From: Microcystis aeruginosa NIES-843 | Lineage (GTDB): Bacteria; Cyanobacteriota; Cyanobacteriia; Cyanobacteriales; Microcystaceae | DNA: 32,000 bases | Reading direction: 5' to 3' | Assembly: GCF_000010625.1 (NCBI RefSeq) | Contig: NC_010296.1 | Span: forward strand, 4,350,001 to 4,382,000 | Shown: piece after piece, positions 2,670 through 30,374 of the stretch | How positions within the stretch are numbered: the first letter of the stretch is position 1 | How the letters are laid out: each line of letters starts with the position of its first letter | Notes under the pieces: model-generated | Databases searched by the model: none | What the model was told of the DNA's origin: nothing | The model's input: only the letters and a program-made list of their open reading frames with translations | Program-made: the position numbers and the translations under genes

Positions 2670-3950
<1,281 letters not shown>

Positions 3951-9695: not shown

Positions 9696-11300
9696 TTAAG
9701 ATCGATCGATATTGGTGAATAATTGAGGATCGAGGGTGGGTAGTTCGATATCTTTTTCTGCTGGGGGAGAGGCTAACTGGAAGCGATTGAAGGTTTGTTG
9801 AATGCGATCAAAAATGGTGATTTTTTGCTCGCTATTGTTTTGGGGTTCGGGAATAGGTTCCACTTCTAGCGGAGGCTGAACCCCAGGGGCCGGTTCGTTA
9901 ATCTCTTTTGTCTCCGGTATGGTGGTTAGGGGAGATTCGATCGCTTCGGGGGTTTCCTCGACCTTTTCGATTGTTTCTGTCTCTACTGGTTTTTCTTCCA
10001 CTATTGGGCTTTCTGGCTCAATAACAGGGTTTTCCTCAACTATTGGGCTTTCTGGCTCAATAACAGGGCTTTCTGGCTCAATAACAGGGCTTTCTGGCTC
10101 AATAACAGGGGTTTCCTCAACTATTGGGGTTTCTGGCTCAATAACAGGAGTTTCCTCCTCAATAACGGGGGTTTCCTCAACTATAGGGGTTTCCTCAACT
10201 ATAGGGGTTTCTGGCTCAATAACGGGGGTTTCTTCCTCAACTATGGGAGTTTTTTCCTCCTCAATAACAGGGGTTTCTGGCTCAATAACGGGGGTTTCTT
10301 CCTCTAGACTGGGAATGGTTTTATAGTTGGGATCAACAATGCTACGGGCAATTGTAGGGGATAAATCGCCGCGGACTAATTGACTGAGGCCGTCTTGGTA
10401 AGAGGGATCAAAACTAATCACGCGCACGCTGGTATTAAACTCGTTTTCGATTTTATTTCCCTTACCATCGATGAATTCTAGTTGTACCCAGTTATTGCCC
10501 TTGGCAAAACCCTTGAGATAGATCGGTTCCCAAGTATCAAGCAGAAAACTTTCACCGTTGACAGTGACACGAATGCGCCAATTTTGAAGACTATTATCCC
10601 CGTTGGCAGTATTGGGCAGACGTAGAGAAGCATTACTCAGATAAAAATCGAGCAGGAGCGGTTCTGCACCGTAGATTCCTTGCGGACTACTGTAGGTTAA
10701 TAGGGGTAAGTTATGATCAGGGGCATTTTTGCCTGTTTTTGTCAGAATATGAAAGGTTGTTTCAGCGAAGGCCCCATCATTTTTAAAACTTTCCTGCCAA
10801 GGCCGCAGGGCCAAGACGCGGAGGGTGTGAGTACCGGGGGCAAGATTTTCTAGGATAATCGGTTGCTTGAGGTCGTAGATAGCCGCTGCTGGTTCATTAT
10901 CGACAATTAGGCTCAAGTGGGGTCCTAATTTCAGGGTATCGTCTTGGAAAATTGGCAGCCCCGACACTTGTAGTTTAACTGTCACCTGAGGGTCATCGAA
11001 AACTTGTTCGGCCAGAGGACTGAGAATCGTTACTTGGGGAGCGTAACGATCTAAACTGGCGCGCAGTTCCTGAATTAGGGCCGGGGGGGCAACCTCAGAA
11101 ATGCGGCCCTGGACGACGGGAAGATGAAGGGTTTCGGAAGTGGGGAGATTGGTAGCCGTCAGGCGATCGCCACAGGCGGTTAACAGGGTGGTCAGTAAAC
11201 CGATCACAAGACATATATGAAGGGTTTTGACTGGGATTAATTTATGTAGTAGGGATAGCACGTTCCTCCTAGAGCCAAGGCCAAAATCTATAGAAACCAT
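9696..11300 (-). CDS. putative lipoprotein with an acidic Pro-rich tandem-repeat region
   Basis: 534 aa. It has a lipobox-like LLTAC after a hydrophobic N-terminus, about 330 aa of non-repetitive sequence, and then about 110 aa of E(T/S)P(V/I)(I/V)E(P/E) units. Confidence 0.7.
   Translation of the reverse strand: MVSIDFGLGSRRNVLSLLHKLIPVKTLHICLVIGLLTTLLTACGDRLTATNLPTSETLHLPVVQGRISEVAPPALIQELRASLDRYAPQVTILSPLAEQVFDDPQVTVKLQVSGLPIFQDDTLKLGPHLSLIVDNEPAAAIYDLKQPIILENLAPGTHTLRVLALRPWQESFKNDGAFAETTFHILTKTGKNAPDHNLPLLTYSSPQGIYGAEPLLLDFYLSNASLRLPNTANGDNSLQNWRIRVTVNGESFLLDTWEPIYLKGFAKGNNWVQLEFIDGKGNKIENEFNTSVRVISFDPSYQDGLSQLVRGDLSPTIARSIVDPNYKTIPSLEEETPVIEPETPVIEEEKTPIVEEETPVIEPETPIVEETPIVEETPVIEEETPVIEPETPIVEETPVIEPESPVIEPESPVIEPESPIVEENPVIEPESPIVEEKPVETETIEKVEETPEAIESPLTTIPETKEINEPAPGVQPPLEVEPIPEPQNNSEQKITIFDRIQQTFNRFQLASPPAEKDIELPTLDPQLFTNIDRS
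9965..10305 (-). repeat. in-frame 21/24-nt tandem repeats encoding ETPVIEP units (bounds approximate)
   Basis: Near-identical units such as gggctttctggctcaataaca recur back to back on the plus strand. Confidence 0.8.
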
Positions 11301-16427: not shown

Positions 16428-16463
16428 AAAAAACCCCCCGCCCATTGGTGGGGGGTTTTGTTT
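16428..16463 (+). terminator. psaAB rho-independent terminator
   Basis: AAAACCCCCC-gcccattggt-GGGGGGTTTTGTTT, 19 nt after the psaB stop. Confidence 0.8.
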
Positions 16464-16955: not shown

Positions 16956-17183
16956 AATAGGAGAATTAAAGGAGACCTCCTGTAAAAGTAAGTTATCGAG
17001 GAGCTATCGGTTTAAAATATCTAAAACTTCAGATAAATTTGACGTAATCTTGGGTTTTATCGAGAGTGTATTTGTTTCTTGTTTTTTTCTCCTCCTGTCG
17101 TTCGTCTCCTTACATAAGGGAAGATTTTTGATTTTTGCAGGAGATCTAGGCAAGAAAAAAAATTATCGTTATAATGAAGTTGT

Positions 17184-17306
17184 GGGGAGCATCTCACCTT
17201 TGTAACCCCTAAATCAGGTTTTTATGTCAAGCTATTTTGAAAGCCTTGCTAGAAAACAGTTTTGGGGATAAGTATAGTTACTTACTTGCATAAATGAGAT
17301 GCTCCC
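17184..17306. mobile_element. about 123-bp miniature element with ISKra4-like termini
   Basis: The left end is GGGGAGCATCTCACCTTTGTAA. The right end, reverse-complemented, is GGGAGCATCTCATTTATGCAA. Both match the IRs of the IS at 26412-27676. Confidence 0.6.
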
Positions 17307-17334
17307 AATAGCCAAGTTGTGAGTTGTGGCTTAT

Positions 17335-17520
17335 GGTTCTTCGGTTTGTGCTATGCAATGTCTTTCTCTATAAGGGATGAAACCCTTATAGAGAAAGACA
17401 TTGATGCGATTTTTGTCAATTGTTTTCGATCTAGAACGAACTAATCAATAGAACTCTTGCCAGATAAGGATTTAGTCGATTTATGCCACCCTATTGAACC
17501 ATACCAAGTAACGAAGAACC
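17335..17520 (+). mobile_element. ISL3-derived MITE, copy 1
   Basis: Termini GGTTCTTCGG...ACGAAGAACC, with the 8-bp TSD TGGCTTAT at 17327-17334 and 17521-17528. It is homologous along its length to 25633-25819 and 28189-28375. Confidence 0.85.
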
Positions 17521-17548
17521 TGGCTTATTCTGTCAGCGGTAGAGTATT

Positions 17549-19951
17549 ATGAGTCAAAAATCTTACGAAGTTTTCCAAGCAGTGGAAAATAAAGCTAACC
17601 TTCTAGCGGGTTATTGGGGTGACTTCAAAACGGAGATTATTCGGCATTTGCCTGAATCCTATCATGGTGAAATCCACGAACTTTCTAGTAACCTAGAGAA
17701 AGCTTTAGAAGTGTTAATCAATGAATTGCGCCATCCTACCCTGATTTTAGCGACGACTGGCACGACGAGCAGTGGGAAGAGTACCTTAGTGAATTTCCTC
17801 TGTGGTGCTGATATTGTGCCAACCGCCGTCAGTGAGATGAGTGCAGGAGCAGTTACGATTGAGTATAGCGAAGAAAAGACTTTAATTATTGAAGAAACAC
17901 CTGGAGCTTTGTGGAAATGTGGTGAATGGAAAAATATTAGCGATGAGGAAATTTGTAAACGCTTAGAGGAAGCAATGCTTCGTTATATTGATAATAAAAT
18001 TGATAATAAAAAAGATAAAGCTAACTTAGCTTATCCTAAATTTACTATTTATTATCCTTTCAGACTTTTTAAGGAATATGAGCAAGATTTACCTAAAGGT
18101 GTCAAAGTTAAATTACTAGATTTACCCGGATTATCTTATGTGGGTGATGAAAGCAATATGGAAGTTATTAAACAGTGTCGCGGTGCCTTATGTCTTGTAA
18201 CTTATAATAGCCAAGAAACTGACCCTCAGAGGGTTAAAAGTTTATTATCACAGGTTGTAGAAGAAGTCAAGGAGTTAGGTGGTTCTCCCGAACGAATGTT
18301 ATTTATTCTCAACAAAATTGATGTTTTTAGAGAGGATAAAAATTGGGTAAAGAGTGAAAAGCGTTTTATAGAAAAAACAACCCGAAGTATTAAAAAAGAA
18401 CTCACAGAACAATTAAGAGAATATACCAAAGCGATTGAAAATCTCAAAATTATCAAATTAAGTACGCGACCTGCTTTTTTATCTTTAGAGTTACAAAGTT
18501 CAGATGAAAATAGAAGAATTGAAGCTAGTAAACAAGCTAGGAAACAATGTACTTCTTTAATTGAAGATATACTTGATGAATTACCTGGATCGCCTAGCAA
18601 ATGGTTGAACCATGATCGAACAAGAATTGCTAATACGTTATGGCAAGAATCCTATGCTGAAGAATTTCAACAATATCTAAACCTGCATATTAGCCAAAAT
18701 TTCCCTAAATTAGTTATTCCCCAAGCTATAGAAAGATTTAATGTAGCGGCGGGAAATAGTATTGCACAATGGGCAGTACAAACGACCACGGCAATTCTTA
18801 ACAGTTCGGAAAAAAATTATCAAAAGGAAATAGAAAAAATCTCATGGATTAAATCTTCCTTAAATCAATTTCTGCAAGTGAGTGATGCTAATTTACGAAA
18901 GCCTTTTGAAAAAATTAATCAAAACTGTGAGGAGTATATAAACCAACAAACAGAAGATGATCCCCTTTCTATATTAACAGAAGCTATTACCGATCTTCAA
19001 TTTACTGAGCCTTATAATGAAATTGAAGAAAAATTAGTTCCTCTTTATGATTGGAGAAATGCTTTAGGGAGAGGAGTTGATCAGATTTTAGAAGCAGTAG
19101 CAGAATCCTTAGAAAATGGCAGAGTTACCCTCGATCATCCTAATTTTAAAAAAGCTAATATTGTCAATGTTAACTTGCTAGAGGGTAATCTGAGAAGATT
19201 AATCAAACTGGGCTATAGTCATTATTTCGCCAAAAATGGACAAAATGTGGTGGCAAAAACTCAGGAAGAAAAAGAGAAGCTTAAGCAAACAAATGATGCA
19301 CTTAACGAACTGTCTATTCATCTTAGTCTGATTATAGCGCAAGTGTTGGATAAAATTTCTACCCAAGAGATTCAGCGAATGTATGAAGCGGTAAATGAAT
19401 TATTCATCTGTCATCTTGCTTATTTAGAAAAAGGTTCTAATGAACGCGCTCCTGATATTGTGATTAGATTTCCAGAATCAGAGTTAAACAAAGTTACAGA
19501 TAATCTAAAATTTGATTTTGTTAAGTTTGACTCGGACTTTGAAATTAAAAAAGAAAAATATATTGAAGAATATAGAACTTGGAAACATTGGTTATGGATA
19601 ATTCCCAAAAAGGAAAAACGCTTTAGCGATAATGCAAAAATTCCAAGTATAGGAGAAATTTTAGCCGACTGGAAAAAACAGTTAAAAGAAGTTGAACCTG
19701 AGATGTTAAAGCAAGTAATAGAATGGCTATTAGCACAAATTGACGATTTAAAAAAAAGTGTAGATAAAACTCAAAATGATATTTTTGATCAGTATCGGGA
19801 TAGACTAGAAAAGGCTAGACAGGAGATTACTTTTGATTATGAAAAACAGCAAAATGTGTGGCAACCTATGCAACAAAGAGCGAAAAGATTAGAGGAAGAA
19901 TTTTCTCGACTAGGTAATTTTGAAAAGGAGGCTGATTCCAGTGGTAGTTGA
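17549..19951 (+). CDS. dynamin-like GTPase A (bacterial dynamin-like protein)
   Basis: 800 aa with G1 GTTSSGKST, G3 DLPG and G4 NKID in the first 260 aa. The remaining roughly 540 aa are charged and helix-prone. Confidence 0.8.
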   Translation: MSQKSYEVFQAVENKANLLAGYWGDFKTEIIRHLPESYHGEIHELSSNLEKALEVLINELRHPTLILATTGTTSSGKSTLVNFLCGADIVPTAVSEMSAGAVTIEYSEEKTLIIEETPGALWKCGEWKNISDEEICKRLEEAMLRYIDNKIDNKKDKANLAYPKFTIYYPFRLFKEYEQDLPKGVKVKLLDLPGLSYVGDESNMEVIKQCRGALCLVTYNSQETDPQRVKSLLSQVVEEVKELGGSPERMLFILNKIDVFREDKNWVKSEKRFIEKTTRSIKKELTEQLREYTKAIENLKIIKLSTRPAFLSLELQSSDENRRIEASKQARKQCTSLIEDILDELPGSPSKWLNHDRTRIANTLWQESYAEEFQQYLNLHISQNFPKLVIPQAIERFNVAAGNSIAQWAVQTTTAILNSSEKNYQKEIEKISWIKSSLNQFLQVSDANLRKPFEKINQNCEEYINQQTEDDPLSILTEAITDLQFTEPYNEIEEKLVPLYDWRNALGRGVDQILEAVAESLENGRVTLDHPNFKKANIVNVNLLEGNLRRLIKLGYSHYFAKNGQNVVAKTQEEKEKLKQTNDALNELSIHLSLIIAQVLDKISTQEIQRMYEAVNELFICHLAYLEKGSNERAPDIVIRFPESELNKVTDNLKFDFVKFDSDFEIKKEKYIEEYRTWKHWLWIIPKKEKRFSDNAKIPSIGEILADWKKQLKEVEPEMLKQVIEWLLAQIDDLKKSVDKTQNDIFDQYRDRLEKARQEITFDYEKQQNVWQPMQQRAKRLEEEFSRLGNFEKEADSSGS

Positions 19952-20735
19952 ATACTTTGAAACCAGATATAAGCAAATTTTTGAACAAGTTTTTCCTCAC
20001 ATTAAAAGACAGGAAGTAGGTACTTTAAGTTCTGTCATTTATTTGATTTTAGATACAAGCCAAGCCCAGGAACTTTGTCAAGAATATGGTATTAAAAAAA
20101 ATGCTTCTTTAGATGATGATTTAGATTTATCTGATGATATTATATATACAATTTCTATCAATAAACAAAAACCTGTTAAAGAATCCCCTATCCTTAAAAC
20201 GGGGGGAGAAATTTTTAAAAATGTCTCCAGACCATTTCGCAAATCCCTAGATGATAATGAGGACAAAATGGAATTAATTGTACTCGCTGCTGTTATCTTA
20301 ATCGGAATATATTCTACTCAAAAATTGTTAAGGAAGTCCCACGAACAAAACACACGTCCTCCTGTACCTCCTAGCCAACCTATTCCTACAGCGATTTGTC
20401 TAGCTGTTCCTGCATCAGCAGTTTATGACTTAATTGTAGGAATGCGGATAAATAGAGAGAAAATCATTCAACTAATTGAATCTGCTCCAGAGTTTTTATG
20501 TATTAAAGTAGAAGAAGCAAACAAAAAAATTATAGATACAATTAAGCAAGAAATTTCACCAGACAGTCAACTTAAATTTTATATTAGGATTGACATACCC
20601 AATGGACAAGATATCATTGGTGCAGAAACTAAATATGTTATTAAAAGGGATATACCCAAGGAGACAAAGGGTGAAGTTAAAGATCTAGGTCGCTTGAAAG
20701 ATGCGTCTGTTCTCAGAAAATTCAACCGTATTTAA
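19941..20735 (+). CDS. single-pass membrane protein of unknown function (middle gene of the operon)
   Basis: GTG at 19941 lies 9 nt after AAGGAGG (19925-19931). The track start TTG at 19920 is also in frame. A hydrophobic helix MELIVLAAVILIGIYST (20268-20318) is followed by the Pro-rich TRPPVPPSQPIP. No family recognised. Confidence 0.65.
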   Translation: MVVEYFETRYKQIFEQVFPHIKRQEVGTLSSVIYLILDTSQAQELCQEYGIKKNASLDDDLDLSDDIIYTISINKQKPVKESPILKTGGEIFKNVSRPFRKSLDDNEDKMELIVLAAVILIGIYSTQKLLRKSHEQNTRPPVPPSQPIPTAICLAVPASAVYDLIVGMRINREKIIQLIESAPEFLCIKVEEANKKIIDTIKQEISPDSQLKFYIRIDIPNGQDIIGAETKYVIKRDIPKETKGEVKDLGRLKDASVLRKFNRI

Positions 20736-20747
20736 GGAGTTAATGTA

Positions 20748-23054
20748 ATGGATTGGAAATCGGCCTCATCCTACTATGAAACCCGTCTCAGTGATGTCTT
20801 AAATATCCAACATTTTGCCGTTGACTTAGCCAAACTTCCCCAAGCTGAAGTTCCCTCTAAATTAACAGAAATCCTCCTGCAAGAGGCAATACCTGCTAAC
20901 CGTCAACTCGAAAGACTGAGAAAAAGAGAATTTCGTATTGCTGTGGTTGGCTTAGAAAAGGCAGGAAAAAGTACCTTTATTAACGCATGGTTAGAATGTG
21001 ATTTACTTCCTGCCAAAGGAGGAAGATGTACCTTTACCACCACTCAAATTTATTCCGTTAAAAGCGAATCTGAACAAAGATTAGAAGTGCAAACCCGCAG
21101 CGAAGAACAATTTATTCATCTCCTCAAAGAATTAGAAACCGTTGGCGCAAAAGAAGACTTAAAAACCATTAGAGAAAACGAAATCACTCTACAACAAGTC
21201 AGAAAGGAAGGTAATTTAGTTATTCCTTTTACTCGACTAGAAGACATCCGAGAACAACTAAAAAAATACGTTGCCGATGAAAAATACGCCCATGCAGTCC
21301 TAGAAGCCCGACTTTATACTAATAAACTCGCTCAAGCAGAAGGAATCGTCTTTTATGATGTCCCTGGTTCAGATTCTGGGTTAGCCAAGCACGTTGATGA
21401 AGCCCAACAAATGTTATCCGACTGTGATGCAGTCATCGTGATTCAGCGTTTTCGCAGTATTAGAGAAGCCGAATTAGAAATTATTAAATTTACAGAACAA
21501 GGTGATAAGAATGTCACCATTGCTGATAAATTATTTGTCTTTTTAAGTCATATTGACTCTCTTGGTAGCCCAGAAGCCCTTAAAACTCATATTACAGAAG
21601 CCTCTCAGGATTGGTTAAAACGCGCTAATTTACCGGTTAATCGCATTGTTTCTGGTTCAGCAGGAGCTTATTTAATCTTAAATAATCTGGCGGAAGAACC
21701 TACTCAATTAGAAATCGGACAAGCCAGCAATATTCAAGATAAATTAAAAACTTTAACTGGAATTATAGATGATGAAATGTTAAAAACTCAAGCTACAGGA
21801 ATCCCTGAAATTAAACAAAAAATCTTTAATTATATTAATACTGAGCGAGTGGCAATTCTCAAGAAACGCTGTGAAGCTTCCATTGATAAAATTGTCAGCA
21901 CCTCAGAGGACATTCATCATCTTGTCAGTCAAAGATTTCCCGAAAATCCTGAAGAAGCACAACGCTTTGAAGAAGAAAGAAGAAGAATTGATTTTTCAGA
22001 ATGGTGGCATAGAAAATGGGAACAGATAAAAGCTGATTTACAAAATTTTTATGAAACATCTGTCATTAACAAACCCTTAGAAAAAGTTAATAACGAATCT
22101 TCCAGTAGTCTCGAAAAATTTAAAGAACGCTATAGGCAATTGTTAGCCAGTGAAATGGCAAAATTAAGACAAGAAACTTTAAGAAAAAAAGAAATTATTT
22201 TTGACGCAAATTCTTTTCCAGACTTCGACAAAGTAAGAGCTAATTATGCTTGGCGGGATGACTTGTATGGGGATGTTAGAACATTTTTGGCTGCCCTTGC
22301 TCGACAATTAGCGGCAGAATTAAAAGATGAAGCCTTAAAATTAGTCGATTATATGTCCTCTTTATTATGGGGAAGTTCTCAAGTAAAAGAACGACTTATT
22401 GGTTATTCAGAGCAGGAGTTTTTAACTCGCTTAGAAAATAGTTTATCAGTGTTATTTTTAAGATTTGCTCGTCCCGTTGCTGAAGCATTAATTCGCGGAC
22501 CGGTTAACAGTGATACCCGCAGCCAAATTGTCAAATCCTTAGGGGCTGATGTGGAACTGATTGATAACTATTATCAAGGAGATGAACCTGCTTTTAGGGT
22601 CTTAAAAAAATACGTTAAATATGGTTCTGATTTACTCTTTAACCCTAGTCTTCGTCAACAGGTGTTAGGTGTAACAGAAATTGCCAAAAACGTTATCGGA
22701 ATGACGGTAGATACAGTTATCGATTTAGCCGACCAATTAACCCCACCCAGAGAGGTTGTTACCTTTGAAGTAACTAATGATATTAACGCTTTTGAAGAAT
22801 ATCTACGCAATGGTATTTTTGAAGCTGCAGGATTTGAGTCCTACTGTATTCAAGAATTAAGAGGATTAGTGGATATTTTTCGAGAAAAAGAAGGAACATG
22901 GGCAGGTGTCGCTCAAAACGAATGGTATAAAGAGAATCCTCAGCTTGTAGCAGAATTACCCGCTAATTTGCAATCTCAAGAATTTAATTTAGAAGTTAGT
23001 GAACGACTGAGACAATTAGCAATTGCCTTGAAAAGAAATAGTTCCTCTCAGTAG
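20748..23054 (+). CDS. dynamin-like GTPase B (divergent G4)
   Basis: 768 aa with G1 GLEKAGKST, G3 DVPG, and SHID where NKxD is expected. AAGGAG lies 8 nt upstream of the ATG. Confidence 0.8.
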   Translation: MDWKSASSYYETRLSDVLNIQHFAVDLAKLPQAEVPSKLTEILLQEAIPANRQLERLRKREFRIAVVGLEKAGKSTFINAWLECDLLPAKGGRCTFTTTQIYSVKSESEQRLEVQTRSEEQFIHLLKELETVGAKEDLKTIRENEITLQQVRKEGNLVIPFTRLEDIREQLKKYVADEKYAHAVLEARLYTNKLAQAEGIVFYDVPGSDSGLAKHVDEAQQMLSDCDAVIVIQRFRSIREAELEIIKFTEQGDKNVTIADKLFVFLSHIDSLGSPEALKTHITEASQDWLKRANLPVNRIVSGSAGAYLILNNLAEEPTQLEIGQASNIQDKLKTLTGIIDDEMLKTQATGIPEIKQKIFNYINTERVAILKKRCEASIDKIVSTSEDIHHLVSQRFPENPEEAQRFEEERRRIDFSEWWHRKWEQIKADLQNFYETSVINKPLEKVNNESSSSLEKFKERYRQLLASEMAKLRQETLRKKEIIFDANSFPDFDKVRANYAWRDDLYGDVRTFLAALARQLAAELKDEALKLVDYMSSLLWGSSQVKERLIGYSEQEFLTRLENSLSVLFLRFARPVAEALIRGPVNSDTRSQIVKSLGADVELIDNYYQGDEPAFRVLKKYVKYGSDLLFNPSLRQQVLGVTEIAKNVIGMTVDTVIDLADQLTPPREVVTFEVTNDINAFEEYLRNGIFEAAGFESYCIQELRGLVDIFREKEGTWAGVAQNEWYKENPQLVAELPANLQSQEFNLEVSERLRQLAIALKRNSSSQ

Positions 23055-23968
23055 CGTTAGCTATAGCAAAGCACCGCTATTATTGCGACGATGGCGGTGA
23101 ATTACGGTGATTTGGGGATGTGTATTAAGCTTCGCTAATCTCTACTTATACCTGAACTTTTCTATACATATTATATACCACCATAACCAAAAAACCTTAT
23201 CCATCAATGGATACACCCATTAACTTTTCTGTATGTACCCATGTTTATTATAATATTTTTTAATATAGCAATTTCCATAGTTGTGAGGTACAGAGTCTTA
23301 GGTTTTGAGAATCTGGTCGTCAGGAGTTAAGATTTTGGTGTACCTCATGAGATTGGGAAACGCTATAAACAAGTGGGGAAAGTTTAGGGGAAAATTCCCT
23401 AATCGTAATTCTCCTCGGCAACAATCATGCGTTAGATTTATTCGGGGTTTCCTTAATTTGTACCCAGTAACGGCACATTCAGATACAGCACGGGTTATGG
23501 TCTTTTGTCAAGGGGGAAGTCCAATAATTAAATCTCTACCTTTTAAAATACAAATGGACTATTAAAAGTAAATCCGTAGTCAATTACTCATAACTTCGGT
23601 GGCCGCTCGTAACTGTTAAGGTGATTGTCCAAAGACCATATATAGACGCGGCGGACTGGATTTTGATCACAAATTCTTTGCCAATCATGAATGATAGAAA
23701 GGTCTCCCAGTCCCCTACCTCCCATCGCTTCATCAGGAAACTCTTTTAACCATCCTTGCAGGTCTTCTTTCTTTAGAAAATTAATAGGGGTGAAGGGAGA
23801 TTTTCCTTCAAGAGCTTGTGTTACCTGATTTACAAATTTTTCTGCACAAGTACGTCGCTGATTGCCATCTCCATTTTGGGCAATATGATTGCCAGTTTCC
23901 AGAATGGTCGCCATTGGCAAAAAAAGAGATTCCCCAGCTTTGATTTTCTCTTTTAACTCTTGAAGTAT

Positions 23969-25390
23969 GGCTCTTCGGGAATTGTTATGCAAATAATTAA
24001 CTTAAAATAAAATTCGATGAGAGTGCCTACGCTCAAAAGTAGCTGAAATCCATATAGGGAAGGACTTAAGGCATCAACAGGTTAATACCAAAAGATAGAC
24101 AATCGAGTTAAGATTTGATATAATAGCCAAAAACCAGAGTATTTTACTTATGATACTTGACAAATTTTTGAACCTAGAAGGAACCTGTATTCAAGGCTAT
24201 CGACACCTAGAAAATATCGGTATAGTTTTCCGAATCGAATCGAAAAATAAAAAAGCAACCTGTCCTCGTTGTGGCTTAGAAAGCGATAAACTCCACCAAA
24301 ATCATCGACATTTAGTCAAAGATTTACCAATCTCAGGACAACCAGTGTACCTACAGGTTAATCGTCGTCAATTTAAGTGCGATAATTGTCGAAAACCCTT
24401 TAGCGAAGAGTTAGATTTTGTCGCCAAGAAACGAACCTATACGAAAAGACTAGCCGAGAATATACTCGAACAATTAAAAGAAGGAGATATTTTAAATGTT
24501 AGTCGAATAAATGACGTAACGGAAGAAGAGATTCAAAGAATGATAGAGGACATCGCCGAAGAAATTACAGAGCCAGACCTATCGGAATTAAAAAGACTAG
24601 GAATTGATGAAATCGCTCTAGTCAAAGGACAAAAAAATTACTGTGCGGTTTTAGTAAATTTAGATACGGGAAAACTAATAGCTATTCTAGAGAAGCGAAC
24701 ACAAGAGGAGTTGAGGGAAACGCTTACTGGGTGGGGAAAAGAGGTGTTAGAGCAAATTGAAGAAGTGAGCATAGACCTTTGGTTGCCCTATAAAAATTTG
24801 GTGAAAGAATTGATGCCATCGGCCGAGGTAGTCGCCGATAGATTCCATGTAATGAAACAAATTAATCAAGAGTTAGACGAACAGAGAAGAGCGGAAAAAA
24901 GAGCCGTAGAAGCGCAGAAAAATAAAAAACAGAAAGCGGAAAAAGAAGCGAAGCTAGAAGTTTTAAAGCGAAGTAAATATAGCCTGTTAAAAAATGAAGA
25001 AGATTTAACGGAACCCCAAAAAATTCAACTAGAAGCTATCAAAGAAAAATTCCCAAATTTGAAAAAGATGCAGGAATTAAAGGAAGAATTCAGAAAGATT
25101 TATGAAACCTCAGAGAATCCGACAGAGGGAATGCTATCCATCTCGGAATGGTTGGCAAAATCCTCCAGTGTTTTTACCAAGAGTTGTCAAACAATCCGAA
25201 ACTGGTTTGGAGAAATCATTAGTTATTTTGAGCGAAGGACAACGAATGGGGTGGTCGAGGGAATCAACAATAAACTTAAACTAATAAAACGGAGAGGCTA
25301 TGGCTTGAGAAACTTTCGGAATTTTTGGGTTAGAAGTATGTTATCTTGGCATCTTGTATGTTGATTTAGCATAAAGGGTAACGAAGAGCC
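23969..25390 (+). mobile_element. ISL3-family insertion sequence, complete
   Basis: IRs are GGCTCTTCGGGAATTGTTATGC (left) and GCATAAAGGGTAACGAAGAGCC (right). The 8-bp TSD TGAAGTAT lies at 23961-23968 and 25391-25398. Confidence 0.9.
24150..25364 (+). CDS. ISL3-family transposase
   Basis: Intact 404 aa with an N-terminal zinc finger (CPRCG...CDNC) and a TNGVVEGINNKLKLIKRRGYG tail. Confidence 0.9.
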   Translation: MILDKFLNLEGTCIQGYRHLENIGIVFRIESKNKKATCPRCGLESDKLHQNHRHLVKDLPISGQPVYLQVNRRQFKCDNCRKPFSEELDFVAKKRTYTKRLAENILEQLKEGDILNVSRINDVTEEEIQRMIEDIAEEITEPDLSELKRLGIDEIALVKGQKNYCAVLVNLDTGKLIAILEKRTQEELRETLTGWGKEVLEQIEEVSIDLWLPYKNLVKELMPSAEVVADRFHVMKQINQELDEQRRAEKRAVEAQKNKKQKAEKEAKLEVLKRSKYSLLKNEEDLTEPQKIQLEAIKEKFPNLKKMQELKEEFRKIYETSENPTEGMLSISEWLAKSSSVFTKSCQTIRNWFGEIISYFERRTTNGVVEGINNKLKLIKRRGYGLRNFRNFWVRSMLSWHLVC

Positions 25391-25632
25391 TGAAGTATTA
25401 ACTCAGATTGACTCGCCTTTTGGGGGACATTAAGTATCTCTAAAAAGATCGAGTATCGATTAGACAAATAGCTCCCATCAGGCTACTTCTCCCTGTTTTA
25501 ATTGCTCTAACCAACTTAGCGCGTTTTGTTGACGTTGTTCTGCTGTGGACTTATCCTTTAAGAACTTATCTAATACTTGTTTAGTCATCAACTGACCAAG
25601 AGTTCCCTGCACAATTAATTCGGGGAAACGCT

Positions 25633-25819
25633 GGCTCTTCGGTAATTGTTATGCAATGGACGGGGGTTATAAGGGATGGAACCCTTATATAGAAAGGCGT
25701 TTAGCGATTTTTGTCAATTGTTTTTGATCTAAAGCGAACTCATCAATTAAGTCTTTTGCCAGATAAGGATTTAGTCAATTTATGCCCCCCTATCGAACCA
25801 TACCAAGTAACGAAGAGCC
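25633..25819 (+). mobile_element. ISL3-derived MITE, copy 2
   Basis: Termini GGCTCTTCGGTAATTGTTATGCAA...GTAACGAAGAGCC, with the 8-bp TSD GAAACGCT at 25625-25632 and 25820-25827. Confidence 0.85.
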
Positions 25820-28188: not shown

Positions 28189-28375
28189 GGTTCTTCGTTA
28201 CTTGGTATGGTTCGATAGGGGGTCATAAATCGACTAAATCCTTATCTGGTAAGAGACTTAATTGATTAGTTCGCTCTAGATCAAAAATAATTGACAAAAA
28301 TCGCTAAATGCCTTTCTATATAAGGGTTCCATCCCTTATAACCCCCGTCCATTGCATAACAATTACCGAAGAGCC
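28189..28375 (-). mobile_element. ISL3-derived MITE, copy 3 (inverted)
   Basis: The reverse complement is nearly identical to copy 2. It is flanked by ACATTTC(G) at 28182-28189 and 28376-28383. Confidence 0.85.
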
Positions 28376-28691: not shown

Positions 28692-30374
28692 GGGCTTGCT
28701 GAAAAAGCCTGAAATGCCGATAGGAAAAAGGTTTCGACTCAATAAAGTCGAGAAAAAAGGCCCAAAAAAAGGTAAAATACCCTAAAAGCCAGGCACTTTT
28801 TTCATCCAGTACAGATGTATCGTATATCGACAGCAACTCCCTCAGAACCCGAATCATTTGAACTGCCCGAGGAGCGGAAAACTATCAGATGAAAACCGTT
28901 GGGTTATTATGACCAACTTAATTCCCTGGGAAAAATTTGAAGAAGAATACGCAAAAAGCTTTTCCGAAAACAAGGGGGCACCCGCCTTACCATTTAGGAT
29001 AGCATTGGCAGCATTAATTATTCAAGAAAGATTAGGAATAAGCGACAGAGAAACCGTCGAACAAATTAGGGAAACCTCTTACCTACAATACTTTATTGGG
29101 CTAACAAACTATCAAATAGAAGCCCCATTTGATGCCTCAATGATGGTATATTTTCGGAAAAGAATTAAGTTAAACCTCCTCAACAAAATTAACCAAGAAA
29201 TGGTGAAAAAAGGCCGAGAACTTCTCGAGGGCAAAGAATCTGGTGACGGAGCAGAAGAGCGAGGAGAAGAAAGTGAGCGGCCCAATTCAGGAAAATTAAT
29301 ATTAGATGCGACTTGTGCGCCTGCCGATATTAAGTATCCCACAGATTTAGACCTATTAAATCAAGCTCGTCAAGGAACGGAAAAAATCCTAGATTGTCTC
29401 TACAGGGAAGTCAAAGACAAGTTAACTAAGAAACCAAGAACTTCCCGAAAAATAGCGAGAAAAAACTATTTAAAAGTCGCTAAAAAACGTCGTCCCTCTC
29501 AAAAAGAAAGACGGAAAGCCATTGGTCAACAACTGGGATATATTCAAAGAAACTTAGGTTATATAGACCAACTAATTGCATTAGGAGCCTCCTTAACTTG
29601 TTTAAGTAAAAGACAATATAAACTGCTATTAGTCATTGAAGAAGTCTCTCGTCAACAACGGGAGATGTGGTCAGAGAAAAAAACAAAGGTTGACCAGAGA
29701 ATTGTCAGTTTAAGTCAACCTCATGTACGTCCTATTGTGAGAGGCAAAGCCGGAAAACCGACGGAATTTGGGGCAAAGCTCTCGGTGTCTTGTGTGGATA
29801 ATTATGTATTTTTACACCGTTTGTCTTGGGAAAACTTTAATGAATCTCAAGATTTGAAAGCGCAAGTAGAAAACTTTAAAGAGACTTATGGTTGTTAGCC
29901 AGCAATCCGTTCATGTCGATAAAATTTATCGAACCAGAGAAAACTTGGCATGGTGCAAGGAAAGAGGGATAAGATTAAGTGGATTACCCTTGGGAAGACC
30001 ACCGAAGAATCGCAGGGCTGAAATAAAAAAACAAGCTCAAGAGGACGAGAGTTTTCGCAATGCAATAGAAGGGAAATTCGGACAAGCTAAGAGAAGATTT
30101 GGTTTAAATCTGTGCATGACAAAACTACCTGAAACTTCAGAAACGTCCATTGCTCTTACCTTTTTGGTTGTCAATCTTTCCCGACTGCTTCGGCAGTTTT
30201 TTGGGCTTTTTTTGTCTTTCTGGCTTTTTCGGCGAACAAATGAACTAAGATGCCGCCAACGCTTTAACAAAAATTATGTTAAAAGTTATTTTACTCAAGT
30301 AAAACTTATCAGTTGAACGACAAATTATTGGCACTCAATAGCATAATTCTTTGAGCGACTTTTTCAGCAAGCCC
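28692..30374 (+). mobile_element. IS5/IS1182-superfamily insertion sequence
   Basis: Perfect 16-bp IR GGGCTTGCTGAAAAAG, flanked by TAATTA at 28686-28691 and 30375-30380. Confidence 0.8.
28815..30316 (+). pseudogene. IS5/IS1182-type transposase (DUF772-type N-terminus), in three frames
   Basis: ATG at 28815 gives MYRISTATPSEPESFELP, followed by a shift near 28870. The main frame 28858-29898 reads PFRIALAALIIQERLGISDRETVEQIRETSYLQYFIGL. A further shift near 29890 leads to SVHVDKIYRTRENLAWCKERGIRLSG. Confidence 0.75.

Follow-up and report, generated by a model that had tools for sequence, protein, structure and literature searches.

The window analysed here, a stretch of 32,000 nucleotides (nt) from Microcystis aeruginosa NIES-843, carries at 17549-23054 on the plus strand three translationally coupled genes, of which the outer two (open reading frames ORF1 and ORF3) encode large dynamin-like proteins (DLPs, here DLP-A and DLP-B) and the middle one (ORF2) a small protein predicted to cross the membrane once. 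Judged from sequence, the trio is best read as an operonic bacterial DLP pair that acquired a dedicated bitopic, that is single-pass, membrane partner. Operonic DLP pairs are known already; what is new here is the separately encoded bitopic partner between the paired genes. The genes and their start signals are as follows (aa, amino acids).

17549-19951, plus strand: ORF1, DLP-A, 800 aa, BAG04582.1 (tag MAE_47600, inferred)
19925-19943, plus strand: start signal of ORF2, with AAGGAGG at 19925-31, a 9-nt spacer and GTG at 19941, overlapping the ORF1 stop by 11 nt
19941-20735, plus strand: ORF2, MAE_47610, BAG04583, 264 aa from the GTG (the mechanical ORF begins at TTG 19920)
20734-20750, plus strand: start signal of ORF3, with AAGGAG at 20734-39, an 8-nt spacer and ATG at 20748, after a 12-nt gap from ORF2
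20748-23054, plus strand: ORF3, DLP-B, 768 aa, BAG04584.1 (tag MAE_47620, inferred)

Gene calls and conservation of the cassette

The tags of ORF1 and ORF3 were deduced from accession order, and that of ORF2 is named in the BAG04583 record. A preliminary description of this DNA, made from its letters alone, had given the three ORF coordinates, the Shine-Dalgarno-type motifs, the 11-nt overlap and the 12-nt gap, all of which were borne out; the overlap of ORF1 and ORF2, with its AAGGAGG, indicates translational coupling. The GTG at 19941 is backed as the start of ORF2 by the N-termini of its orthologues, and while the original NIES-843 and NIES-102 records give the product as 155 aa (BAG04583.1 / WP_012267279.1), a 264-aa RefSeq protein exists (WP_041804243.1). 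MAE_47610 is mis-annotated at 155 aa: the conserved gene is 264 aa long, counted from GTG 19941. The contrast in G+C that the same description had noticed between the trio and psaAB was computed as 0.32-0.37 against 0.51-0.55, with the addition that the trio is not alone in this, the whole stretch from 17 to 32 kb being AT-rich (G+C 0.32-0.40).

In a distribution scan of one genome per GTDB species, relatives of ORF1 were found in at least 119 species, nearly all of them cyanobacteria and drawn from many orders, including Microcystis, Crocosphaera, Geminocystis, Spirulina, Microcoleus, Planktothrix, Trichodesmium, Moorena, Nostocales, Pseudanabaena, Chamaesiphon and Leptolyngbya. The few matches outside Cyanobacteriota are distant, and a planctomycete locus (Urbifossiella) has all three genes. 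Informative loci, defined as those in species-representative genomes with a complete ORF1 and enough downstream DNA, numbered 55, and the trio is kept in the same order in 51 of them; the gap from ORF2 stop to ORF3 start measures 9-20 nt in 44 of 47 orthologous loci, and that between ORF1 and ORF2 has a median of 13 nt. With order and spacing so preserved, the arrangement is not chance, and by this comparison of loci the three genes appear as one conserved, tightly coupled unit, in keeping with the operon first proposed for them. No fourth gene is conserved alongside, the largest flanking family occurring in 8 of 80 loci. Typical identities of Nostocales proteins to those of the window are ~70% for ORF3, 57% for ORF1 and 30% for ORF2.

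Three further observations concern the spread of the cassette. In Crocosphaera sp. XPORK-15E (locus L009, 4847-10319) the cassette DNA is 84% identical to the Microcystis copy, with protein identities of 81% for ORF1 and 87% for ORF3, a likeness seemingly above expectation for these genera that suggests inter-genus transfer. A distant variant in a metagenome-assembled genome of Pseudomonadota (locus L083, 9830-15055) has an ORF1-like gene of 802 aa and an ORF2-sized gene of 267 aa and, in place of a full ORF3, a 335-aa Dynamin_N GTPase and a gene of the LRAT/NlpC-P60 family (lipid acyltransferase/phospholipase-type). Searches of plasmids and phages for ORF3 brought up no copy, the only matches being ~25% identical and from Bacillus.

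Two divergent dynamin-like proteins

Both large proteins are dynamin-type GTPases, as had been proposed: ORF1 matches Pfam Dynamin_N with 52.3 bits (domain at aa 68-256) and ORF3 with 55.4 bits (aa 64-254) against a cut-off of 27, and their motif residues are invariant. The coordinates listed below for G1, G3 and G4 of ORF1 and for G1 and G3 of ORF3 agree with those of the preliminary description; invariance in ORF1 refers to 45 family members.

17759-17785, plus strand: ORF1 G1/P-loop GTTSSGKST, aa 71-79, invariant
18119-18130, plus strand: ORF1 G3 DLPG, aa 191-194, with D191, P193 and G194 invariant
18311-18322, plus strand: ORF1 G4 NKID, aa 255-258, with N255, I257 and D258 invariant
19511-19606, plus strand: ORF1 aromatic cluster, aa 655-686, comprising F655, F660, F664, W/Y671, W681, L682 and W683
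20949-20975, plus strand: ORF3 G1 GLEKAGKST, aa 68-76
21357-21368, plus strand: ORF3 G3 DVPG, aa 204-207
21546-21557, plus strand: ORF3 G4 position SHID, with I269 and D270 invariant

The ORF3 family holds invariant its G1, the threonines of the G2 region, G3 and the aspartate of G4, the last of these motifs reading S-H/R-I-D instead of N/T-K-x-D. Matches of either DLP to sequences in the PDB are limited to the P-loop or G domain, at E-values of 1e-2 to 5e-6: Nostoc BDLP is met by the ORF1 profile at 0.019 and by the ORF3 profile at 8e-4; the ORF1 profile further finds an IRG-type N-terminus (4e-5), and the ORF3 profile SynDLP (5e-6). With either protein, every NCBIfam model stayed below its cut-off.

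Structure prediction, one of the checks proposed at the outset, returned a BDLP/mitofusin-class fold for ORF1. The AlphaFold2 model, built with 45 homologues, has a predicted local distance difference test score (pLDDT) of 82.7 and a predicted template modelling score of 0.81, and shows a long helical neck and trunk after the G domain. A Foldseek search with this model places Nostoc BDLP at the top (2j69, E 1.3e-10; also 2j68), followed by mitofusin-1/2, IniA, SynDLP and Cj-DLP1/2 and, lower down at rank 44, by LeoA (4aur, E 1.7e-5), a distant structural match. Given the confidence of the model and this ranking, ORF1 is predicted to have the full BDLP/mitofusin-class architecture. Between its two longest helices the model has a beta-hairpin (strands 666-675 and 687-698) overlapped by the aromatic cluster, of which W683 is kept in 39 of 45 family sequences; this hairpin is a plausible candidate for a membrane-binding 'paddle' at the trunk tip, equivalent to that of BDLP.

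The two DLPs are far apart. When the ORF1 and ORF3 family profiles are aligned with hhalign they meet at the P-loop only (probability 11%), so that the two form a heterotypic pair and a recent duplication is ruled out as their origin. Duplication of another kind is seen among relatives of ORF1: in P0017 and P0018 (1279-1281 aa) and in P0034 (Dolichospermum circinale, partial) the N-terminal ~470 residues are tandemly duplicated, taking in the whole G domain and giving a double-GTPase DLP that is reminiscent of DynA and arose by self-duplication.

ORF2, a predicted single-pass membrane protein

The sole strongly hydrophobic segment among the three proteins lies in ORF2, where Kyte-Doolittle hydropathy over 19 residues reaches 2.02 at aa 112-130; the peak in ORF1 is ~1.1, and likewise in ORF3, with no segment of transmembrane (TM) strength in either. 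The earlier assignment of a TM segment to the middle gene, and of none obvious to its large neighbours, thus stands. The AlphaFold2 model of ORF2 (pLDDT 76.8) resolves the following parts.

aa 1-72: small helical N-domain, followed by a disordered linker
20256-20342, plus strand: one confidently modelled TM helix, ~aa 106-134, followed by a Pro/Gln-rich linker
20382-20732, plus strand: conserved alpha/beta C-domain, aa 148-264, confidently modelled and holding the invariant strand AICLAVPAS

ORF2 is therefore predicted, on this model, to be a bitopic membrane protein with a variable N-domain and a conserved C-domain. A hairpin anchor of two TM segments, suggested by the hydropathy plot, was rejected, the second stretch (AICLAVPAS) being the invariant beta-strand of the C-domain in the model. 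The TM segment is seen in 46 of 53 orthologues, and in those 46 its flanks carry net charges of -9 (N-terminal) and +94 (C-terminal); by the positive-inside rule, this would place the C-domain in the cytoplasm and the acidic, variable N-domain outward, in the periplasm or thylakoid lumen.

ORF2 has no match to a Pfam or NCBIfam family and no meaningful match in PADLOC, and Foldseek with its model returned only noise from the PDB (best E 0.03) and from the viral structures of BFVD (best E 0.1). An exhaustive profile search of 1.84 billion representatives yielded 200 relatives; among the best 150 of these, fragments included, full-length proteins are ~250-316 aa long, the longest reaching 364 aa, and no Rosetta-stone fusion to a DLP, or to any other large protein, is seen. 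Neither that search nor Foldseek against the PDB detected relatives outside the cassette.

An optional cargo of the Microcystis island

In Microcystis carriers the trio always stands directly after psaA-psaB-DUF29, 1.1 kb downstream of psaB and on the same strand in every carrier examined, with flanking DNA 98.5% identical. With the exact PsaB protein as the anchor, it was found in only 2 of 10 distinct Microcystis contexts of identical PsaB. The fixed, universal core locus that the preliminary description had named as counter-evidence was not seen, the other 8 contexts being without the trio. Homology between carriers and trio-less strains stops and restarts at the edges of a variable slot, whose features are given here with those of its neighbourhood.

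16430-16459, plus strand: intrinsic-terminator-like hairpin after psaB, with a 13-bp stem and a T tail
16973-23524, no strand: variable slot; homology to trio-less strains stops at ~16972 and restarts at ~23525
17185-17306: second small inverted-repeat element
17335-17520, no strand: miniature inverted-repeat transposable element (MITE)-like element, bounded by terminal inverted repeats of 21 nt and enclosing a perfect 21-nt palindrome (17356-17403)
23588-23992, minus strand: PDC-M07B-type remnant; homology to intact copies stops at ~23968, beside an ISL3 element
24150-25364: ISL3 transposase gene, seemingly intact, with full-length Pfam coverage
28516-28857 and 30364-31271, minus strand: pieces of a PDC-M07A-type AAA_15/AAA_21 ATPase gene, split by an insertion sequence (IS) with transposase ORFs at 28858-30316

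Besides the trio, the slot holds two MITE-like elements and, 3' of the genes, ~470 bp of spacer. In trio-less strains the same slot is occupied by the candidate pair HEC-02 A/B (480-497 bits), by MNT/HEPN pairs, by VMAP-type HTH genes and, in one strain, by an NB-ARC/TPR protein; the island of other strains also has GmrSD, HicA and HmaC genes close by. Its conserved right flank is the candidate pair PDC-M07A/B (710 and 196 bits), which is intact in other Microcystis strains (e.g. L089, 18757-20489). The cassette is thus an optional cargo of a defence-type island in Microcystis, and the survey of presence, absence and neighbourhood that had been called for at first came out, within Microcystis, on the side of a defence context, with HEC-02, MNT/HEPN and PDC-M07 around the slot. 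The hairpin at 16430-16459, as read from its sequence, would separate the psaAB transcript from DUF29 and the cassette. The family of the MITE at 17335-17520, with its internal perfect palindrome (CAATGTCTTTCTCTATAAGGG...), has further copies at 25632-25819 and near 28310; the copy upstream of the trio ends 28 nt before the ATG of ORF1 and may be a carrier or a disruptor of the cassette promoter.

The neighbours had been described as broken. This holds for the AAA ATPase and the PDC-M07B-type gene, both interrupted by IS elements in this strain, and fails for the ISL3 transposase gene; the gene at 23588-23992 (minus strand), earlier labelled 'PIN-like', has no Pfam match and corresponds to the gene in L089 that scores as PDC-M07B.

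The island downstream of psaAB-DUF29 is hypervariable at large (L093, L095 and L098, ~13.1-18.8 kb; L090, 13102-15426; L097, 20784-22214), and its cargos also include MNT/HepT pairs, HTH_VMAP-M9 genes, an NB-ARC/TPR STAND protein and HicA/DUF433, with GmrSD further downstream; in L091 (1112-4504) an HmaC-type ATPase lies upstream of psaA. Elsewhere in the window, an ORF of 534 aa just upstream of psaA (9696-11300, minus strand) has no Pfam match and is present, at 440-534 aa, in all Microcystis contexts examined, and a group II intron match (Rfam RF00029, 55 bits against a gathering score of 40) at 2566-2643 on the plus strand lies upstream of ORFs at 2958-3894, probably a group II intron with its maturase/reverse transcriptase gene.

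Mosaic alleles and decayed copies

Within Microcystis the three proteins differ greatly in their conservation: identity is 96-98% for ORF3, 56-80% for ORF1 and 37-95% for ORF2. In ORF1 the differences fall in blocks, such that aa 1-120 are conserved, aa 121-400 exist as a second allele common to all three other strains compared, and aa 401-800, together with ORF2, take a third, deeply divergent form in M. ichthyoblabe. Synonymous divergence (dS) in the divergent blocks is 1.0-1.7, against 0.04 for psaB, and the ratio of nonsynonymous to synonymous divergence (dN/dS) is 0.05-0.16 for ORF3, 0.2-0.35 for ORF1 and 0.4-0.9 for ORF2. Values of 0.65-0.87 are approached by ORF2 alone, in the closest comparison, and a value of 3.96 derives from a segment of 42 codons, which is too small to be relied on. 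Since dS is saturating, the divergent blocks are old alleles imported by recombination and not the outcome of rapid local evolution, and positive selection in situ is unsupported as the source of the divergence within the genus. In these comparisons ORF3 stands out as the slow-evolving member of the pair and ORF1 as its variable, mosaic member. The most variable 40-residue block of ORF1 is aa 321-360 (18509-18628), at 20-48% identity in every comparison, close relatives included; it coincides with 18487-18618, where the DNA of Microcystis alleles is unalignable, and is placed by the model just past the G domain, as a helix and loop.

The trio is intact here, as had been observed, and this is nothing special to the cassette, decayed copies being found in several lineages. 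In M. viridis NIES-102 ORF2 is split by a ~188-bp MITE of the 17335-17520 family, homology breaking at ~20070-20077; Trichodesmium has a frameshift in ORF1 and has lost ORF3; the ORF3 of Crocosphaera watsonii WH 8501 is interrupted by ~2 kb of additional DNA; and two Nostocales have lost ORF3.

Comparison with known dynamin systems

Bacterial DLP genes mostly lie side by side as operonic pairs whose products act as heterotypic, membrane-tethering complexes, examples being Cj-DLP1/2, IniA/C, Nostoc BDLP1/2, Streptomyces DynA/B, LeoA/LeoBC and the fused DynA (PMC6104087, PMC4159319). The trio is like Cj-DLP1/2, Nostoc BDLP1/BDLP2 ('Tandem A/B'), IniA/IniC and Streptomyces DynA/DynB in having two divergent, full-length, adjacent DLP genes, and the predicted fold of ORF1 matches BDLP1, IniA and Cj-DLP1/2; unlike all of these it has a separately encoded bitopic protein between the two genes, and its DLPs are unassignable to any known pair by sequence, similarity being confined as described above. 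A survey of cyanobacterial DLPs distinguishes six clades and for none of them describes two DLP genes that enclose one for a membrane protein (PMC5827413), and it is for this reason that the locus is best read as a DLP pair with an added partner. Its family probably sits in the unclassified 'cBDLP' group of Jilly et al. 2018 (PMC5827413); the 'HSR1' clade includes a plasmid-tagged gene of Anabaena sp. 90 (PMC5827413), and the lack of a plasmid-collection match for ORF3 hints at a clade other than HSR1, the inclusion of the Anabaena sp. 90 plasmid in that collection being unconfirmed. No description of a trio of DLP, TM protein and DLP was found in the literature searched, just as the preliminary description had failed to recognise one.

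The closest parallels each differ in a telling respect. Eleos (LeoABC of enterotoxigenic Escherichia coli, ETEC), which is catalogued as an anti-phage system and to which the trio had been tentatively likened, is also a multi-gene dynamin locus with a small, separate gene for a membrane-anchored product, LeoC ending in a hydrophobic anchor (PMC4159319). LeoC and LeoB are, however, the halves of a split DLP, with the P-loop in the LeoC half, whereas GTPase sequence is absent from ORF2. No protein of the trio matches a LeoA model of PADLOC-DB v2 at E <= 1, and by these model searches the trio is not a member of Eleos; the matches to LeoBC are weak and partial, of a kind to be expected for any DLP (ORF1, 31.5 bits, E 2.5e-8, profile positions 50-395 of 601; ORF3, 11 bits, E 0.035). 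DynA of Bacillus subtilis likewise joins two cooperating DLP modules, and membrane fusion or repair and a delay of phage lysis have been reported for it; its two modules form one polypeptide, with no separate membrane protein at its side, whereas the DLPs of the trio are separate genes, and the ORF3 G domain meets the second-module region of NCBIfam DynA (NF052648) at 1.3e-12 with 46.4 bits against a cut-off of 1600, which sets the trio apart from that family. Nor does the duplicated G domain of P0017 (1281 aa) amount to a DynA-like fusion, since it does not join ORF1 to ORF3.

SynDLP (Slr0869) of Synechocystis is also cyanobacterial, gives the best sequence match of any solved structure to ORF3 (within the G domain, to which the sequence similarity is confined) and is a structural match to the ORF1 model as well. 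It belongs to the KGK clade, in which the DLP gene is typically followed by a small KGK-domain gene and not by a second DLP (PMC5827413), and, unlike the trio, it has no TM partner. Mitofusin, Fzo1 and FZL have the BDLP-class fold in common with the ORF1 model and are TM-anchored tethering GTPases; in mitofusin the TM segments lie inside the DLP chain, whereas in the trio a different gene supplies the anchor and neither DLP has a TM segment.

Function: readings of the trio

On balance, the locus is probably a self-contained, horizontally exchanged three-gene cassette in which a heterotypic DLP pair and a dedicated single-pass protein serve the protection or repair of membranes. The three proteins would be made together and act as one complex at the membrane, with ORF2 as an anchor or adaptor whose conserved C-domain meets the conserved DLP-B in the cytoplasm while its acidic N-domain reaches into the periplasm or thylakoid lumen; DLP-A would provide a second membrane contact through its aromatic trunk tip, and GTP binding and hydrolysis by the pair would tether, reshape or reseal the membrane. 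Such GTP-driven tethering would follow, by analogy, the model proposed for other operonic pairs (Cj-DLP1/2, DynA). Membrane remodelling is thus the likely mechanism, and, rather than housekeeping, the role of the trio is most likely to protect or mend the cytoplasmic or thylakoid membrane once the envelope has been damaged, be it by phages or otherwise.

Several points weigh against this reading. The case for physical interaction of the three proteins is one of gene linkage, no ORF2-DLP fusion appearing among the best 150 of the 200 family matches; the stalk architecture of ORF3 is assumed from its length and family; and the topology of ORF2 follows from a charge statistic, an outward N-terminus of ~105 residues without a signal peptide being unusual and two C-domain cysteines, ~90% conserved, being such as could fit an extracytoplasmic C-domain. 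LeoA, according to PMC9950537, showed no GTPase activity, and fusion by DynA is nucleotide-independent, so GTP-driven remodelling is not to be assumed for every bacterial DLP. Outside Microcystis the nearest flanks are mixed, with Uma2 nuclease-like genes in 10 of 124 (a raw count) and some restriction-modification, 'mad' and AAA_21 genes among ordinary metabolic ones, and neither the locus tags nor the accessions of the trio were mentioned in the literature searched.

Phage defence is a plausible part of such a role, and one to be taken seriously in view of the island in which the trio lies, its presence in some strains and absence from others, and its mosaic alleles. That it is the selected function itself, the trio being a dedicated anti-phage system functionally like Eleos or DynA, is a credible alternative that we hold tentatively; ORF2's outward domain or the variable part of ORF1 would sense infection or an attack on the envelope, and the DLP pair, by sealing or reshaping the membrane, would block entry or delay lysis, a scheme that overlaps the membrane-protection reading in mechanism and differs from it in what selection acts on. 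Dynamin-type systems are already accepted as defence systems (bioRxiv 10.1101/2022.12.12.520048; PMC11265339), and DynA limits phage spread, as cited in PMC9950537. The slot that the trio has in common with HEC-02 and MNT/HEPN, beside PDC-M07 and in an island with NB-ARC/TPR, HicA, GmrSD and HmaC, speaks for this alternative, although the HEC and PDC neighbours are themselves only candidates, neighbourhoods outside Microcystis are mixed and PADLOC v2 detects no known or candidate system in the trio. So do its patchy distribution, with presence differing among strains of identical PsaB, and the frequent decay of its copies, against which stands the lack of a phage or plasmid copy of ORF3. The deep mosaicism confined to ORF1 and ORF2, with flanks and ORF3 nearly uniform, and the raised dN/dS of ORF2 also speak for it, but the divergent blocks are old recombined alleles without clear positive selection and ORF1 remains at a low dN/dS; the weak match of ORF1 to the PADLOC LeoBC model adds a little on the favourable side.

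A bolder version, possible yet rather unlikely in our estimation, makes of the trio a new type of dynamin-based immune or envelope-surveillance system, in which the fast-evolving, outward N-domain of ORF2 and the variable part of DLP-A detect an extracytoplasmic event and relay it across the membrane to the conserved, cytoplasmic DLP-B. The triggers would be phage adsorption, injection or attack by lysis proteins, and the DLP-B motor would seal or remodel the membrane, though this extension is equally doubtful. If true, it would amount to a transmembrane-signalled dynamin defence kept as alternative alleles in bloom-forming Microcystis populations.

It is very improbable that the trio is a GTP-sensing signalling module regulating another membrane protein, after the manner of RdcA/RdcB (YjdA/YjcZ) of E. 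coli, a DLP and a ~33-kDa partner that are encoded in one operon and act on a membrane domain (PMC6510439). Beyond that precedent, the N-terminus of ORF3 matches NCBIfam CrfC/YjdA weakly (1.7e-4), but at 20 bits it falls far under the cut-off of 1146; ORF2, a predicted membrane-spanning protein without a Pfam family, is unlike the soluble RdcB, so that the trio does not belong with RdcA/RdcB. Moreover, full-length DLPs always come here as a pair, the surroundings hold no conserved target gene, and the predicted fold and aromatic tip of ORF1 suit membrane-binding BDLPs.

Least credible of all is a housekeeping role in the biogenesis of thylakoid or photosystem I membranes, linked to the adjacent psaAB, which the constant position downstream of psaB and the thylakoid dynamics role proposed for cyanobacterial DLPs in reviews (PMC5827413, PMC9950537) might recommend: the strong terminator after psaB makes a functional link to photosystem I unlikely and, with the 8 of 10 same-PsaB contexts that lack the trio, led to its rejection, other genera carry the trio far from psaAB (e.g. 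Calothrix) with no flanking family conserved, G+C and the load of IS and MITE mark the region as accessory DNA, and presence/absence has already largely refuted the idea.

Significance

Bacterial DLPs occur mostly in operonic pairs, and their roles in vivo are largely unknown. Cyanobacteria have up to eight DLPs per genome, of which, to our knowledge, only Nostoc BDLP1 and SynDLP have been studied. Against this background, the cassette offers three compactly arranged genes with well-defined limits, among them that of an obligate membrane partner whose predicted fold matched nothing in the PDB or BFVD. There are natural carrier and non-carrier Microcystis strains isogenic at the flanks, and the mosaic alleles direct attention to variable surfaces in ORF2 and in ORF1 past residue 120. 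The Microcystis island after psaAB could, furthermore, be mined for more candidate systems. With the cassette it can be tested how a soluble DLP pair comes to the membrane, and whether dynamin machines are a general arm of cyanobacterial defence against phages and envelope stress, a question that bears on the ecology of Microcystis blooms and their cyanophages.

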